In this document: positions 21,636 to 61,035 of the stretch, piece by piece
Layout: each line of letters begins with the position of its first letter
How positions within the stretch are numbered: position 1 is the first letter of the stretch
Assembly (NCBI GenBank): GCA_029001845.1
Contig: JAREWP010000022.1
Location: 33,678 to 97,677, forward strand
Direction of reading: 5' to 3'
From: Candidatus Magnetocorallium paracelense
Lineage (GTDB): Bacteria; Nitrospirota; Thermodesulfovibrionia; Thermodesulfovibrionales; Magnetobacteriaceae
Length of the DNA: 64,000 bases
Program-made: the position numbers and the translations under genes
The notes under the pieces: model-generated
Told to the model about the DNA's origin: nothing
The model's database searches: none
The model's input: the letters and a program-made list of their open reading frames with translations, nothing else

Positions 21636-22541
21636 TTATATACCTTCCTCCTTTAATACACTTCTGACGAAATCTATTTCCATCTCCAATACATCCGCTA
21701 TATTCTCCGCCTTCATGTCAGCTCTTTTGTACAGCTTTATTACCGACTCTTTCTTTGCCTTGTTTACACCTTTTTCCATTCCCTTTTCCATTCCCTTTTC
21801 CATACCGTCAAAAAGCGCCGTTTCCACCAATGACCTCTCATATCTTAAATTCTCCATATAAATATTATAGGCAGCTCTTTCCTCTTCTCTCAAATTTAAA
21901 ATATCCAGTCTCTTCTTAGCTAAATCTATATTCTTCGCATTAAAGTCGTCCCTTATCTCCCCTGTTTTTAAAAAATAGACCCACTCGTCAAATCGCTCCT
22001 CCATCTCCTTATTCTCGTCGAATTTTCCTGTTCGGATTATGTAGTGCTCAGGGAATATCTCATCTATCTCTGTCAGGTTAAACAGCTTTTGCTGAGACTT
22101 TGTCAGTTTCAGAATATCCTTCTTATGCACTCCCGTAAATTGTGTAGTCCCTTTGTACAGATAATCTTCTCCGCTGCCAAGTTCGAAGTATACGATACTT
22201 ACGGTAATAACCTTCCTGATTTTGCCGTAAGATTCTCCCTCTCTTAAGAACTGTGTTATCAAACGCGATGAACCGAATAAAATTCTGTGAAAGAAATCGA
22301 ACTCCCGCTCATACTGCACCTCGATTAATATCAATGCTTCCAGCGAATCCTTTGCAAGTATATCTACTCTGTTGGATTTGTCTCTTTCTGCTTCCTTATT
22401 ACTTTCGCTCTCGATTATATCTACTATAGTAATATCCTCATGAAGCAATTCGCTCAGAAAACCCTCCAATATATCGAAATTGGCTTTGTCTCTGAGTATA
22501 CGCTTTATCGCCCAGTCAAATGTTATTAACTTTCTTTTCAT
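21636..22541 (-). CDS. Rpn-family recombination-promoting nuclease / PD-(D/E)XK putative transposase
   Basis: 301 aa. DWAIKRILRDKANFDILEGFLSELL...DKSNRVDILAKD...LILIEVQYE is the YhgA/Rpn-type nuclease core. The C-terminal part is helical with MEKG repeats. Confidence 0.85.
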   Translation of the reverse strand: MKRKLITFDWAIKRILRDKANFDILEGFLSELLHEDITIVDIIESESNKEAERDKSNRVDILAKDSLEALILIEVQYEREFDFFHRILFGSSRLITQFLREGESYGKIRKVITVSIVYFELGSGEDYLYKGTTQFTGVHKKDILKLTKSQQKLFNLTEIDEIFPEHYIIRTGKFDENKEMEERFDEWVYFLKTGEIRDDFNAKNIDLAKKRLDILNLREEERAAYNIYMENLRYERSLVETALFDGMEKGMEKGMEKGVNKAKKESVIKLYKRADMKAENIADVLEMEIDFVRSVLKEEGI

Positions 22542-23787: not shown

Positions 23788-23857
23788 AACCACGAAGTTC
23801 ACGAAGGACACGAAGAAAAAACAAAAAATCTTCGCGCCCTTCGTGAACTTTGTGGTT
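23788..23857. repeat. family D (cacgaag)n hairpin without cargo
   Basis: Left arm aaccacgaagttcacgaaggacacgaaga, loop aaaaacaaaaaa, right arm tcttcgcgcccttcgtgaactttgtggtt. The arms are complementary apart from 3 mismatches. Confidence 0.9.
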
Positions 23858-23864
23858 AATTAAT

Positions 23865-23930
23865 CTTTTTTGAATGCCTTTGGATTATGATTGTTTTTTT
23901 CACTTAATATGTGATTTTACTGAGTTATGA
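23865..23930 (+). repeat. family E unit, degenerate copy (completes an E-D-E composite palindrome spanning 23715-23930)
   Basis: cttttttgaatgcctttggattatgattgtttttttcacttaatatgtgattttactgagttatga shares blocks with family E: tttttt-ga-t-c-ttt-gatt-a-gattgtttt ... gattttactgagtt-tga. Confidence 0.6.
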
Positions 23931-24000: not shown

Positions 24001-25227
24001 ATGAACAAGAGGTCCAAATCATTAAGAAAGAGTCATTTTGGGATTTATCTTTTAACCGTTTTATTGATTGCCGGATTGGCAGGGGCGGCGTATGGAGGAT
24101 CGGATTCGAATGTGACCTATACGTTTACATCGGGATCGACTGCGAAATCGAGTGAAGTGAATGCGAATTTTGATTATCTGGAGGACAGGTGTTGGGATAT
24201 GAGTGGGAGTAATTATTATTTGAATGGTGACTTCGTTGGTATCGGTACTTCAAGTCCATTGTATTCTAATACTCTCTTTGAAGTACGTAAAGATCATGCA
24301 GACAGAACCAGATTAACTATTAATAATCAATATGGCTCAGGGAGCAGATCTGAATTATTTTTAAGAACTAAAATTGGCTCAGATGATGGTGGAGGATTAT
24401 ATCTTCAGGCAAATTCAAGCACATCCGAATGGGGTAATGATGCAGTAATAGCAACTACAGGCCCTGACGGTGTAAATATGAGATTTTACAACGCAAAAGG
24501 TGATTATTATTTTATGGGGAAATCAGATGGCACTAAAGGCAATGTCGGTATTGGTACAGATAATCCAAATTATTTATTTCATGTTTATGACACCACTAAT
24601 TTCAGTAGCTATTTTGAAGGCACAGGCACAGTAGATGTTGTCTTGAAAAGTGAAAGTCAGGCAGGATTAAGTATTAAGTCAAATACGAATCCAGTATTAA
24701 GTTTTCAGGTAGGTACTACAAATCCAGGTAGTACCCGTGCTAGCATTTATGTCAACAGTTCAGATAGTTCCATGAGATTTCAGGCTGGTGGTGAAACTGA
24801 CAGGATGACTATTGACTCTTCCGGGAACGTCGGAATCGGAACAACCTCACCTTCAGGAAAGCTTGACGTCAACGGCTCCATCTACCAACGCGGCTCCTCC
24901 CTCCACGCCGACTACGTCTTCGAGCCTGACTACAAACTGGAATCAATAGAAGAACACGCCGATTTCATGTGGAGTAACAAGCATCTTAAAGCAATCCCTA
25001 AAGCAAAGGTAGACGAGCAGGGGCTTGAGATTGTTGAGGTGGGTTCCCATCGTAAAGGCATTGTAGAAGAGCTTGAAAAGGCGCATATTTATATTTCCGA
25101 GTTGAATGAAGAGATGAAGGAATATAAGGACTCAATCGCCCGGCAGCAAGAGTTAATTAAGCAGCAGCAGGAGGCGATCTCTTTGTTGATGGAGAAGGTA
25201 GAGGCATTGGAAAAGCAGGAAAAGTAG
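24001..25227 (+). CDS. secreted/anchored tail-fibre-like protein with a C-terminal coiled coil
   Basis: 408 aa with a strong RBS (aggagg). N-terminal anchor IYLLTVLLIAGLAGAAYG. Motifs SSEVNANFDYL and repeated GNVGIGT(T/D)xP...L.V resemble tail-fibre-like proteins. The distal DYVFEPDYKLESIEEHADFMWSNKHLKAIP module is followed by a heptad coiled coil. Confidence 0.7.
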   Translation: MNKRSKSLRKSHFGIYLLTVLLIAGLAGAAYGGSDSNVTYTFTSGSTAKSSEVNANFDYLEDRCWDMSGSNYYLNGDFVGIGTSSPLYSNTLFEVRKDHADRTRLTINNQYGSGSRSELFLRTKIGSDDGGGLYLQANSSTSEWGNDAVIATTGPDGVNMRFYNAKGDYYFMGKSDGTKGNVGIGTDNPNYLFHVYDTTNFSSYFEGTGTVDVVLKSESQAGLSIKSNTNPVLSFQVGTTNPGSTRASIYVNSSDSSMRFQAGGETDRMTIDSSGNVGIGTTSPSGKLDVNGSIYQRGSSLHADYVFEPDYKLESIEEHADFMWSNKHLKAIPKAKVDEQGLEIVEVGSHRKGIVEELEKAHIYISELNEEMKEYKDSIARQQELIKQQQEAISLLMEKVEALEKQEK

Positions 25228-25238
25228 GGATAATTATT

Positions 25239-25737
25239 AACCACGAAGGGCACGAAGATCACGAAGAAAGGGATAAAGATATTAGATTTCATTATTATGT
25301 TATATTAGGTAATGGAATTCGATGAGTTATCTAATAAGGTTATCGGGCTTGCTATTACGGTTCATAAAGAATTAGGGCCTGGATTGTTGGAGAATACATA
25401 TAAACAATGCCTTGCCTATGAATTGAGTAAGGCTGGTATGAATTTTCAGATAGAAGCCGATTTGCCTGTCGTTTATAAAGAAATCAAAATATCATGCGGT
25501 TACAGGATCGATTTATTGATAGAGAAGCAACTGATTGTAGAGCTAAAGAGTGTCGACCAACTACACTCTGTACATGAAGCCCAAATACTTACATATATGA
25601 AACTGTCGAATATAAAAAAAGGTCTATTACTTAATTTCAATACAGTATTATTAAAAGACGGCATAAAAAGATTTATTTTATGATTAAAAATATTTTTCTT
25701 TTATTCCTTCTTCGTGGCCTTCGTGCTCTTCGTGGTT
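25239..25737. repeat. family D (cacgaag)n inverted repeat enclosing the GxxExxY ORF
   Basis: Left arm 25239-25272: aaccacgaagggcacgaagatcacgaagaaaggg. Right arm 25705-25737: tccttcttcgtggccttcgtgctcttcgtggtt, its near-perfect reverse complement. The ORF 25312-25683 sits in the loop. Confidence 0.9.
25312..25683 (+). CDS. GxxExxY family protein (PD-(D/E)XK nuclease-like fold)
   Basis: 123 aa. VIGLAITVHKELGPGLLENTYKQCLAYEL carries the G-x-x-E-x-x-Y signature. YRIDLLIEKQLIVELKSV is a D...E-x-K nuclease-like core. Ends with ...LLNFN. Confidence 0.9.
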   Translation: MEFDELSNKVIGLAITVHKELGPGLLENTYKQCLAYELSKAGMNFQIEADLPVVYKEIKISCGYRIDLLIEKQLIVELKSVDQLHSVHEAQILTYMKLSNIKKGLLLNFNTVLLKDGIKRFIL

Positions 25738-25778
25738 AAAAAAATAACAAGTTTCTATTCAATTAAGGAGAGAACAAT

Positions 25779-28571
25779 ATGAAAAAACGATATTTAACAT
25801 ATTTTTTCCTTTTCCTTCCTTTACTTCTCCTGCCTGCCATAGCCTTTTCCGCAAGCAGTAACTGGGACGAGATGATATGGGATCAGGATGTATGGGACGG
25901 AAGTAACAAATTTACACTTACTGTAAGTACTACGGGATCGGGAAGCTGTACTGTCACGAGTTCCCCCTCGGGAATTAATTGCGGAAGCGATTGTAGTGAA
26001 AGTTACGATTCAGGAACAAGCGTCACATTAACAGCCACACCTGACAGCGGTTCCACATTCGACGGCTGGTCAGGGGCATGCAGCGGTACAGGGAGTTGTA
26101 ACGTAACCATGACTGTGGCTACAGCCGTAACAGCTACATTCACAAGCGCCTGCGGCGACAACTTTACCATATCCCCGACAAGCAAATCCTTTGATGCGGC
26201 AGGCGGAACGGGCAGTGTATCGGTAACTGCGCCGGCAAGCACATGCACATGGGGCGCTTCGGTAGATTCGAATTCAACGAGCTGGATAACGATAACATCG
26301 GGAAGCAGCGGAACCGGTAACGGAACGGTCAGCTATAAAGTATCGGAAAATACCGGTACGGCGGCAAGAACCGGAACCATAACCATAGCCGGTAAGACAT
26401 TCACCGTGACCCAGGATGGAGCAGAATGCAAATTTACATTATCGGAAACGAGCAAATCCTTTTCCGCATCAGGCGGAACCGGGAGTGTAACTGTAACGCC
26501 TTCAGGCAGCACATGTGCATGGACGGCATCGGTTGATTCATCCTTTGCAGGCTGGATATCCGTCACATCAGGCAGCAGCAGTACCGGAACGGGAACAGTT
26601 AATTATACGGTTGCCGAAAACACCGATACTGGAGCAAGGACAGGTAAGATTACAATCGCAGGACACTCTTTTGAAGTAACTCAGGAAGGGGCATGTGGAT
26701 TTACCCTTACTCCTGCAAGCCAAACATTTACCACAAGCGCAGGAACGGGAAGCTTTGCCATTGATGCATCGGACAGCGCCTGTGCATGGACGGCAACAAG
26801 CAGTGATTCGACGTGGCTTGGTTTTACAACGACTGCAAGCGGAACCGGAGATGCAACAGTGGGTTATTCCGTTACTGAAAATACAGGCTCAGACCAGAGA
26901 TCAGGAACAATCACCATAACAGGAAGTACTTCATCCTCCGTATTTACGGTAACTCAGGATGGAGTAACCTGTGTCAGTACAGGATTTACAATAACGCCTG
27001 CAAGCGCATCTTATGATTATGAAGGCGGAACGGGAAGTGTTGCCGTAACAGCCCCGACAGGTTGTGACTGGACAGCAGTAAGCAACACGCCGGACTGGCT
27101 CCTGATAACATCGGGAAGTACTGGAACAGGAGAAGGCAGTGTTTCTTATGAAGTAGAGGTAAACACATCCTCTGAGACGCGTACAGGAACCATGACCATT
27201 GCAGGAAAGACCTTTACCGTTACACAGGAGAGTTTTGTCGTAGGAACTCTTGTCGGTTACTGGACTTTTGATTCAGGTTCAGGGAGTATTGCCTATGACT
27301 CCTCAGTGAACGGATATGACGGAACCATTGCAGGAGCCGAGTGGATCGAAAACGGCGCCTGCGGGTATGCGCTGAGCTTTGACGGAACGGAAGATTCCGT
27401 AGAGCTTCCCTATTCATTTATGAACGGAATCGGAGCCTTTACATTCAGTGCATGGGTGCTTGTAGATCACGGCGCATTTACATCCGGTGAAACTCTTATG
27501 GGCGCCATTGTTTCGGCAGCTAATGCAGGTCAGTCAAATGAATTACTGCTCTTTGTCAACGGTACGGAGTTATGGCCGATGATAAAGGGAGAGAGATTCA
27601 TAACCACCAGAGGAATCAGCGACAGTCAGTGGCATTATGTCTCTCTTGTAAGAGAGAGTTCCGGTAATTCTTTACTCTACATAGACGGAGAGTTGGACAG
27701 TTCCGGTGTTCTTTCTCATGAACAGTTAAGTGTAGAGCCCGGCGGATTATGGCTGGGAAGAGAGCAGGATTGCGTGGCCGGATGCTGGGATATATCTCAG
27801 GATTTTGAGGGCGCAATGGACGAGATAAAGATATACAACTATGCACTGACTTATGACGAGATGCTGGCTGATATGGCGGACTGCGTACCCACAACAGGCG
27901 GTGAAATCGTCGTAACACCGGGGTCTCACAATTTCGGTGAAGTCAATGTAGGTGATCACTCCTCCCACCAGACCTTTACAATCAAGAATACAGGTGTGGT
28001 AAGCCATGCACTGGGCGGACTGGAACTTTCCGGCGCCAACAGCCATGAGTTTCTGAAGGTAAACGATACCTGTTCATGGAAGACTCTTGATCCTGCACAG
28101 AGCTGTATTGCAGAGATCGCCTTTGTACCTGCTACGGAAGGTGAAAAGAGTGCAGGCCTGGATGTGGTATCCGATGAGTCAACCGTCAGCGTACCATTGT
28201 CAGGCGTCGGAGTAATCACGAGCAGCATCGACCTGGCAGGTGAGTGGCAGTCCTTTGAAATGCAGAAAGTCGGTAGAGACAATTTGCAGGTAAAAGGGAC
28301 TTTCCTTGTCAAGAATAACGGTCCTGAGTATTTCAGAGGTACCGTGAAACTGACAGGATACTTTTCTAATGATGACGTATACAGCTCCGACGATGTGTAC
28401 AAGGCTCAGAAGAGTGTCAATGTAAAGGGACGTCAGGGAACCACCCTGAATGTCAACTTTACGGCGGCCGGACTTACAGGGAAGTATCTGATCGTTGTCA
28501 TCGATGCTGACAATATTGTAACCGAATATGACGAGGATAATAATGTTGTAATAAGTCCCATGATGAGATAA
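25779..28571 (+). CDS. large secreted multidomain surface protein (BACON-like repeats, LamG/ConA-like, choice-of-anchor-D/ASH-like, CARDB-like)
   Basis: 930 aa with RBS aaggag and a signal peptide. About five repeats of the type S..F.A.GGTGSV.VTA....C.W.A.......WI.ITSGSSGTG.G.V.Y.V.EN.....RTG.ITIAG..F.V.Q. LamG_3-like block: LVGYWTFD...GYDGTI...AFTFSAWV...QWHYV...LYIDGEL...MDEIKIYNYAL. Then HNFGEVNVGD...FTIKNTG, and a C-terminal YLIVVIDADNIVTEYDEDNN. Confidence 0.85.
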   Translation: MKKRYLTYFFLFLPLLLLPAIAFSASSNWDEMIWDQDVWDGSNKFTLTVSTTGSGSCTVTSSPSGINCGSDCSESYDSGTSVTLTATPDSGSTFDGWSGACSGTGSCNVTMTVATAVTATFTSACGDNFTISPTSKSFDAAGGTGSVSVTAPASTCTWGASVDSNSTSWITITSGSSGTGNGTVSYKVSENTGTAARTGTITIAGKTFTVTQDGAECKFTLSETSKSFSASGGTGSVTVTPSGSTCAWTASVDSSFAGWISVTSGSSSTGTGTVNYTVAENTDTGARTGKITIAGHSFEVTQEGACGFTLTPASQTFTTSAGTGSFAIDASDSACAWTATSSDSTWLGFTTTASGTGDATVGYSVTENTGSDQRSGTITITGSTSSSVFTVTQDGVTCVSTGFTITPASASYDYEGGTGSVAVTAPTGCDWTAVSNTPDWLLITSGSTGTGEGSVSYEVEVNTSSETRTGTMTIAGKTFTVTQESFVVGTLVGYWTFDSGSGSIAYDSSVNGYDGTIAGAEWIENGACGYALSFDGTEDSVELPYSFMNGIGAFTFSAWVLVDHGAFTSGETLMGAIVSAANAGQSNELLLFVNGTELWPMIKGERFITTRGISDSQWHYVSLVRESSGNSLLYIDGELDSSGVLSHEQLSVEPGGLWLGREQDCVAGCWDISQDFEGAMDEIKIYNYALTYDEMLADMADCVPTTGGEIVVTPGSHNFGEVNVGDHSSHQTFTIKNTGVVSHALGGLELSGANSHEFLKVNDTCSWKTLDPAQSCIAEIAFVPATEGEKSAGLDVVSDESTVSVPLSGVGVITSSIDLAGEWQSFEMQKVGRDNLQVKGTFLVKNNGPEYFRGTVKLTGYFSNDDVYSSDDVYKAQKSVNVKGRQGTTLNVNFTAAGLTGKYLIVVIDADNIVTEYDEDNNVVISPMMR

Positions 28572-28640: not shown

Positions 28641-28841
28641 GTAAGATGATCCTGAAAGTATAAAGAAGATATTTGGTCATAGTTCTCAGAGGTAGGAGAT
28701 GGGAGGCCGGTTTTATATGACAATACCTTTCTCCAATTAAAATAACCACATTTATGAGTAATAATAAGCTATCAGACAATGGATGAAGAAGTTTTTTACA
28801 ATTCGAATGCGCTGGATTCCCGCCTTAAGAATTTTCTTTTT

Positions 28842-28870
28842 TCTTCGCGCCCTTCGTGTGCTTCGTGGTT
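28842..28870. repeat. family D right-arm-only copy
   Basis: tcttcgcgcccttcgtgtgcttcgtggtt. The first 17 nt are identical to the right arm at 23829-23845. No matching left arm lies nearby. Confidence 0.85.
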
Positions 28871-28877
28871 AAAAAAG

Positions 28878-28942
28878 TTTTTTTTCGAGTACTTTTGATT
28901 TACGATTGTTTTAAAGTTTTAGCCGGATTTACTGAGTTTTGA
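28878..28942 (+). repeat. family E unit, copy 2
   Basis: ttttttttcgagtacttttgatttacgattgttttaaagttttagccggatttactgagttttga. Confidence 0.85.
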
Positions 28943-29072: not shown

Positions 29073-29087
29073 TTATACATTAAATTA

Positions 29088-29152
29088 TTTTTTTGAGTAC
29101 TTTTGATTTGCGATTTTTTTTTCGGTTTTAACCGGCTTTACTGCGTTTTGAG
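29088..29152 (+). repeat. family E unit, copy 3
   Basis: tttttttgagtacttttgatttgcgatttttttttcggttttaaccggctttactgcgttttgag. Confidence 0.8.
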
Positions 29153-60880: not shown

Positions 60881-60947
60881 AACCGCGAAGATCACTAAGG
60901 GCACAAAGATTTTTATTTTTCTTTATGCCTTTCATGATCTTCGTGGT
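60881..60947. repeat. family D hairpin, degenerate cargo-less copy
   Basis: Left arm aaccgcgaagatcactaagggcacaaag, loop atttttatttttc, right arm tttatgcctttcatgatcttcgtggtt. Confidence 0.75.
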
Positions 60948-61035
60948 TATTTAAACAAAGTTTTTAGGTCTTACTTTCGGGAGAACTAATGACTACCTTT
61001 ATGATAACAAATAGATTTACAATTTTTCGAGTATA

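Follow-up and report, generated by a model that had tools for sequence, protein, structure and literature searches.

Why is a gene for a small protein of predicted nuclease fold held between two inverted arrays of one heptamer, in the gap between two genes that read in its own direction? The case arises in a 64,000-nt stretch of DNA from Candidatus Magnetocorallium paracelense, here called the window, where a gene of the GxxExxY family is bracketed by arms built from the heptamer CACGAAG (Table 1). Comparison with other genomes, metagenomes and viral contigs indicates that the gene-in-hairpin unit looks like an abundant selfish element, apparently undescribed.

Table 1. Features of the unit and of related hairpins (positions in the window, except in the last row, where they refer to the viral contigs named)
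Feature	Location	Strand	Description
Cargo-less hairpin, same type	23789..23858	.	14-nt loop; 143 nt upstream of the 408-aa gene
Upstream host gene	24001..25227	+	408 aa; co-oriented with the unit
Left arm	25234..25279	.	tTAACC + (CACGAAG + 2-nt spacer) x3; heptamers at 25242, 25251, 25260
GxxExxY / PDDEXK_3 gene	25312..25683	+	123 aa, 372 nt; motif G24-x-x-E27-x-x-Y30; catalytic D67, E77, K79
Right arm	25697..25742	.	(CTTCGTG + spacer) x3 + GGTTAA; heptamers at 25710, 25719, 25728
Downstream host gene	25779..28571	+	930 aa; co-oriented; BACON, Laminin_G_3, CARDB, choice-of-anchor D
Lone right arm, CTTCGCGccCTTCGTGtgCTTCGTGGTTAA	28838..28870	.	Inner unit as in the right arm of the 23789-23858 hairpin
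Degenerate cargo-less hairpin	60883..60948	.	CGCGAAG / CACTAAG / CACAAAG units; between two minus-strand genes
Viral hairpin cargo	L205 765-1135 (= L245); L244 2757-3162; L252 36-334		phrog_6978; DUF6527 / phrog_15183; one without family

The unit fills most of the space between its co-oriented neighbors, a gap that measures 551 bp and had been put at roughly 550 bp by an initial annotation of this DNA. Its left arm starts 7 nt past the stop codon of the upstream gene, and 37 nt separate the end of its right arm from the start of the downstream gene. Rereading the window returns the arms as first reported, aaccacgaagggcacgaagatcacgaagaaaggg at 25239-25272 and ccttcttcgtggccttcgtgctcttcgtggtt at 25706-25737. 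The core of the left arm (25239-25266) consists of tta, ACC and three CACGAAG heptamers with gg and at between them, and the core of the right arm (25710-25737) consists of three CTTCGTG heptamers, separated by gc and ct, followed by GTT. The CACGAAG core thus has a period of 9 nt, a heptamer plus a 2-nt spacer, and not the 7 nt implied by the earlier term heptad-periodic. Likewise, the near-perfect complementarity ascribed to the arms holds for the heptamers and fails at both spacers, which are mismatched. An inverted-repeat search extends the arms to 25234-25279 and 25697-25742, 46 nt each, 80% complementary and 417 nt apart. With up to 2 mismatches allowed, CACGAAGNNCACGAAG matches the window 13 times against 0.18 expected, and 13 matches are reached in none of 100 shuffles, so the repeat pattern is not due to chance. 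In the predicted fold of the 517-nt unit the arms are paired, with an energy of -139.9 kcal/mol and a z of -6.1.

Both neighbors had been described as surface-protein genes. The description is supported for the downstream gene by its BACON, CARDB and choice-of-anchor D domains; for the 408-aa upstream gene, profile searches gave no family match and an ortholog search found no close orthologue. The upstream gene is the presumed source of read-through transcription into the unit. Within the downstream gene, internal repeats of ∼270 nt (26159-27059) match its BACON domains. An Rfam search detected no rRNA within the window, where the unit sits between two protein-coding ORFs; across the window and 20 related loci, no Rfam family reached its gathering score, and matches to miRNA hairpins were sub-threshold only.

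Cargo-less versions of the hairpin had been said to occur elsewhere in the window, and they do: one complete hairpin, one degenerate hairpin and one lone arm (Table 1). The complete one folds with a z of -11 to -12.5 and the degenerate one with a z of about -10. A derived inner unit, CTTCGCG-CC, recurs in two places 5 kb apart, within the right arm of the complete hairpin (23830-23854) and within the lone arm (28843-28867), which suggests recent copying within the genome. The letters AACCAC at 28745-28750 are a possible relic of the left end that would belong to the lone arm. No further remnants of GxxExxY or PF05635 genes were found in a search across the window. An A/T-rich repeat of ∼40-75 nt (..TTTTTTGAGTACTTTTGATTTGCGATT..TTTACTGAGTTTTGA) is present at 23859-23897, 28874-28912 and 29082-29120, directly after two hairpin sites and, as a third copy, 208 nt beyond the second; it may represent a promoter-type element for the gene that follows. 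A gene for an Rpn-family recombination-promoting nuclease / putative transposase (TIGR01784) lies on the minus strand at 21636-22541, 1.2 kb from the first empty hairpin.

The generality of the design is evident from two independent routes of sampling. Sampling by arm motif, with one genome per species, yields at least 120 loci, and those listed come from Acidobacteriota, Planctomycetota, Desulfobacterota, Chloroflexota, Verrucomicrobiota, Methylomirabilota, Alpha- and Gammaproteobacteria and others. In the listed loci there are 86 hairpins that fit the consensus (T/A/C)ACC-(CACGAAGnn)2-4 ... (nnCTTCGTG)2-4-GGT and have loops of 5-443 nt. Among these, 83 are empty and 3 are occupied (in the window, L035 and L114), and the coding cargo in all three is a 123-aa GxxExxY protein. 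The identical CACGAAG heptamer is found in phyla that span 39-70% G+C, and the motif is also present in IMG/VR viral contigs. Sampling by protein profile in metagenomes, which relied on protein similarity alone, gives 80 loci at 54-78% identity, 78 of whose genes have enough flanking sequence. An inverted repeat scoring at least 12 spans the gene in 67 of these 78 (86%) compared with 4 of 179 random control segments, and strict 9-nt complementary arms are present in 47 of the 78 compared with 1 of 583 controls; 11 of the 78 have no detectable arms. When both samples are pooled (169 hairpins), loop lengths are bimodal, with 108 below 200 nt, 3 at 200-350 nt and 54 at 350-500 nt. GxxExxY genes are therefore flanked by inverted, CACGAAG-like arms in most cases, and the original proposal of a stem with a small nuclease-fold gene as optional cargo is supported by the armed genes together with the mostly empty hairpins.

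The ORF had been read as a complete GxxExxY gene, and it matches both family profiles over their full length, with 148.7 bits for TIGR04256 (cut-off 35) and 147.8 bits for PF13366 (cut-off 22). Within the set of close relatives, residues G24, E27, Y30, D67, E77 and K79 do not vary; across 78 diverse members each is either invariant or conserved in at least 90%. An AF2 model from a deeper alignment has a pLDDT of 96.3 and replaces one from a shallow alignment (pLDDT 57), which was set aside. The top Foldseek matches to this model are all PD-(D/E)XK nucleases, although weak (E ∼1e-2, TM ∼0.5), and the best PDB matches, also weak, are lambda exonuclease, Cas4 SSO0001, LHK-Exo and RecE. The protein is accordingly modeled as a restriction-endonuclease-like alpha-beta fold and is a predicted nuclease. 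A Holliday-junction-resolvase-like fold was considered and is not among the structural matches. PDB sequence searches with two profiles gave no match, and no solved structure or characterized member was found; defense-system profile libraries returned weak similarity to the Cas4 core and nothing else, and the GenBank phages searched hold no GxxExxY homologue. The family comprises 27,826 clusters at 50% identity. Its top matches in the representative library (P0241-P0255) are proteins of ∼270-295 aa with two GxxExxY domains, perhaps genuine fusions or else tandem units called as a single ORF.

Selection on the protein can be gauged from orthologues at the same site, whose flanks are 72-95% identical. 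Their dN/dS is 0.02-0.12 with dS above 1, indicating that the GxxExxY protein is clearly functional. In these same orthologues, with synonymous sites saturated, the CACGAAG heptamers are intact and the spacers have drifted. The contrast between heptamer and spacer is general. Across 121 distinct CACGAAG hairpins the heptamer positions are 97-100% conserved, whereas spacers pair in 55-61% of cases versus 44-55% when shuffled and show no covariation. On the CACGAAG strand the spacers consist largely of purines, and in occupied units just 33% of their positions form Watson-Crick pairs. Pairing beyond the ACC/GGT ends fades within a few bases. A wobble bias on the sense strand is absent, with G.U versus A.C mismatches numbering 10 versus 16 in spacers and 4 versus 6 in heptamers. 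Fixed heptamers combined with spacers that pair poorly suggest that the arms are inverted arrays of a recognized sequence and not just a stem, and this pattern of letters points to motif recognition over a plain RNA stem. Arm and protein also diverge together. CACGAAG is the heptamer in closer relatives, and CACAGAG, CACGGAG, CACAAAG, CAGTGAG and CGCGAAG occur in other clades, with periods of 8-11 nt. Heptamer type follows the protein tree (67% identity within a type versus 58% otherwise, permutation p<0.001). No target-site duplication was seen around the units; the flanks are complementary (TTnACC...GGTnAA) and extend the palindrome instead of forming direct repeats.

The placement of the units is equally constrained. 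Of 34 callable cases, 31 have an upstream neighbor that reads in the same direction as the unit, and the neighbor's stop codon precedes the first heptamer by a median of ∼13 nt. Cultured or annotated examples come from RefSeq isolates and Ca. Jettenia. In Bacteroides finegoldii the unit lies between radA and the gene for a FAD-dependent protein, its arm beginning 1 nt past the stop codon of radA; in Bernardetia it lies between ade and the mannose-1-phosphate guanylyltransferase gene, in Sphingomonas between fabD and fabG, in Ca. Jettenia between rmlA and rmlC, and in a metagenome lineage between brxC and pglX. The GxxExxY start codon usually abuts the last heptamer of the left arm, which leaves no room for a promoter and so points to expression by read-through. 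Empty hairpins likewise favor the 3' ends of genes, with 17 in convergent contexts and 1 in a divergent context. Intrinsic termination was considered as a function and rejected, as no T-run follows the stem and a terminator scan finds no more sites than in shuffles. On both strands the consensus flanks of the hairpins are rich in T on the upstream side and in A on the downstream side. The gene neighborhoods inspected have no consistently neighboring transposase.

Several loci record what has happened to the units over time. Remnants of GxxExxY genes persist in three empty loops, L076 (both the N- and C-terminus), L039 and L146. Hairpins of sister type are nested in CACGAAG loops at L069, L093, L071 and L047, and in a Vicinamibacterales MAG at least 8 hairpins of the CACGAAG type follow one another in tandem at a spacing of ∼155 nt (L050 6474-7802). 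In the brxC-pglX interval of a BREX operon (L330 2459-3182), a GxxExxY gene with a left arm only is followed by two complete empty CACGAAG hairpins in tandem, over which the gene caller placed a 112-aa ORF. At one orthologous site between convergent genes, the unit is inverted in L143 and L144 relative to L142 and L149, with breakpoints inside the arms. Direct evidence of movement was not found. An orthologous site with the GxxExxY unit in L141 holds a different hairpin in L004, and no clean pair with the same hairpin occupied and empty at one orthologous site was seen; the orthologous pairs other than L141/L004 had been chosen for occupancy. Scoring the hairpins for occupancy, as the initial annotation had proposed, separates at least 83 empty from 3 occupied ones, all three by GxxExxY. 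A separate hairpin family, GTCATGTTGAGCGAAGCGAAACATCTC ... with its reverse complement, occupies one orthologous intergenic site in L133 (839-974) and L153 (1696-1886) and is absent from L161 (1866-1883). The hairpin at L004 7357-7504, where L141 has its GxxExxY unit, is of a similar GTCACCTGAACGAAGTGAAGAATC type at a separate site.

Other genes can occupy hairpins of this kind. A PF05635 four-helix-bundle gene (L122 1371-1733) lies outside rRNA in a long repeat-armed inverted repeat (1255-1961) that is absent from the orthologous site of L124 (1233-1317), which has a short GTGAGGC-type hairpin. A second PF05635 gene, also outside rRNA (L059 3606-4099), has arms of tandem AATTACG heptads. Hairpins of the CACGAAG type are common in IMG/VR viral contigs, where some surround unrelated small genes (Table 1) and no GxxExxY is found in those stretches. 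It follows that arms, even those with cargo, do not require a linked nuclease and that the cargo is not strictly GxxExxY. In the bacterial samples, the coding cargo of CACGAAG-type hairpins is GxxExxY every time. The sole other coding cargo in the bacterial samples is a small ORF of another kind, which matches DUF6504 weakly and below threshold and lies in a CACAGAG-type hairpin at L158 3655-4338; this hairpin adjoins a GxxExxY unit with CACAAAG-type arms.

The best-supported reading of these observations is a module, selfish or semi-domesticated, resident just behind host genes at their 3' ends. We tentatively favor, at a probability of about 45%, a promoter-less selfish module that is expressed by read-through and whose nuclease would recognize its own heptamer arrays. 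The module consists of TTnACC-(CACGAAG-RR)x3, a promoter-less GxxExxY nuclease gene and (YY-CTTCGTG)x3-GGTnAA, and lodges a few nucleotides past the stop codon of a co-oriented host gene. GxxExxY would be transcribed by read-through, its translation would probably depend on coupling or on the SD-like GAAGG/GGAGG of the arm units, and the transcript may close on itself via the arms, leaving the host operon little disturbed. The heptamer arrays would be recognized by their sequence, with the encoded PD-(D/E)XK nuclease as the likeliest factor to do so, and the arms would provide ∼30 bp of homology common to all copies. We infer cleavage by the nuclease at cognate hairpins or close to them, followed by repair that transfers a copy of the gene to cargo-less hairpins, a homing-like gene conversion among dispersed copies. 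Internal deletion would regenerate cargo-less hairpins, so that empty copies may be both relics and targets. A 123-aa hydrolytic nuclease alone cannot rejoin DNA, which counts against this homing-like reading, and the viral cargo leaves room for an unlinked mobilizing factor. Long vertical retention and strong purifying selection are unusual for a purely selfish homing gene, and a host benefit could therefore exist. A stronger form of the same reading is doubtful: GxxExxY units would be an unrecognized class of mobile element, in which a minimal nuclease reads its own 7-bp arrays and is copied by repair among thousands of cognate hairpins, with a heptamer 'code' that co-evolves with the enzyme, PF05635 IVS proteins as a parallel lineage and rRNA intervening sequences as a special case.

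An unlikely alternative places the process at the RNA level, as an insertion like the intervening sequences of rRNA. The arms would then be only a double-stranded RNA stem, serving as an RNase III site or for looping out, that excises or insulates the insert, and the nuclease would be unrelated to them. In its favor, the MFE fold predicted for the unit brings the arms together (z = -6.1), and the folds of empty hairpins have energies of -35 to -46 kcal/mol. Units can occupy an operon while its genes stay together, and PF05635 genes share the design. There is also precedent in rRNA intervening sequences that carry an ORF, have a closing stem and are processed by RNase III (PMC4990558). However, such a stem should drift by compensatory change, and instead the heptamer is fixed across phyla with spacers that do not covary. 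The missing bias of G.U over A.C on the sense strand argues in the same direction, as does the way heptamer type tracks protein clade. Strong purifying selection on GxxExxY also sets it apart from the apparently untranslated S23p of Coxiella (PMC4990558).

Two further alternatives assign the nuclease a different part. It is quite improbable that the hairpins are REP-like 3'-end structures useful to the host, in mRNA stabilization or genome structuring, with GxxExxY as a domesticated nuclease whose task would be their upkeep, such as the resolution of hairpins or cruciforms once extruded. The 17 to 1 excess of convergent over divergent contexts for empty hairpins at gene 3' ends fits this proposal, and so do strong purifying selection with long vertical retention at fixed sites and the swapping of hairpin families at the same intergenic 'slot' (L141/L004, L122/L124). 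An identical heptamer in phyla of 39-70% G+C and in viral contigs is better explained by horizontal spread, however, and ORF decay inside hairpins, nesting and tandem pile-ups are likewise at odds with a host function. Insertion in essential operons such as fabD-fabG looks opportunistic, and a stem without a T-run is not an intrinsic terminator. In a very unlikely reading, each arm would be a terminal inverted repeat that offers several binding sites to an unlinked transposase or recombinase, and both GxxExxY and the phage genes would be passengers. Three direct 9-bp sites, inverted between the two ends, resemble the subterminal binding-site arrays of transposons and count in its favor, as do the other genes carried in viral contigs and the excess of empty over occupied hairpins (at least 83 versus 3). 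Against it, 86% of the GxxExxY genes have arms, arm type co-diverges with the protein, and GxxExxY is every coding cargo of CACGAAG-type hairpins in the bacterial samples, the only other coding cargo there being that of the CACAGAG-type L158 hairpin. The absence of target-site duplications, and of a transposase consistently nearby in the neighborhoods inspected, also speaks against an unlinked transposase.

The proposed module shares features with several known systems and differs from each. Intervening sequences in the 23S rRNA of Leptospira and Coxiella have complementary ends that form a stem, contain a PF05635 / S23p ORF and are seen as selfish and horizontally spread (PMC4990558). Like the unit, they hold an ORF of ∼120 codons between stem-forming ends inside a host transcription unit, and versions lacking the ORF exist. 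An early analogy with these sequences is strengthened by the PF05635 genes that have the same design outside rRNA (L122, L059). Unlike the unit, which sits between protein-coding genes and encodes a PF13366 PD-(D/E)XK protein, intervening sequences interrupt a 23S rRNA helix (9, 25 or 45) and encode a PF05635 four-helix bundle. Moreover, the arms of the unit are arrays of a conserved heptamer, not arbitrary complementary sequence, and its protein is under strong purifying selection.

Homing endonuclease genes resemble the unit as small promoter-less nuclease genes that depend on host transcription, spread across phyla and occur in intact, decayed and empty states. The unit differs in having no intron or intein and in its putative target, a dispersed hairpin repeat in place of one conserved host site; GxxExxY belongs to none of the classical homing families, and cleavage and homing are only putative for it. 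With MITEs, REP/BIME elements with RAYT and Correia elements, the unit shares short inverted repeats in many copies at gene 3' ends and in convergent gaps, and in both some copies derive from a coding parent by internal deletion. Terminal inverted repeats and many dispersed copies are present here as in MITEs, whereas the only linked protein is a 123-aa nuclease and no transposase parent is found. The unit has neither a DDE or Y1 transposase nor a target-site duplication, and its arm motif crosses phyla instead of being species-specific, with 2-4 tandem units of 8-11 nt per arm. Nucleases of the Cas4 and lambda-exonuclease type give the best structural matches to the AF2 model and a weak Cas4-core profile match, with the D...E-x-K motif conserved. 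GxxExxY proteins, in contrast, are half their size, have no aligned Fe-S cysteines and lack a CRISPR context, and the matches are weak. A published description of GxxExxY genes in hairpins was not found in open-access papers and preprints, in line with what had been supposed when the locus was first described. The finding relates to palindromic elements already known, whether IVS-like, homing-like or MITE-like, and the architecture itself is apparently undescribed.

The arms have practical consequences for annotation. They yield spurious ORFs with HEGHEE, FVSFVV or LRVLRG peptides and probably break assemblies, and they mark insertions in operons, such as fabD-fabG, that annotation takes for ordinary genes. 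A 7-nt motif that is kept across phyla while nearby synonymous sites saturate calls for a factor that recognizes it. GxxExxY, a family named after its motif only and without a known role, now has a genetic context and a candidate partner in the flanking heptamer arrays. More broadly, the analysis points to ORF-bearing rRNA intervening sequences as part of a wider class of genes carried in hairpins, most of which lie outside rRNA.
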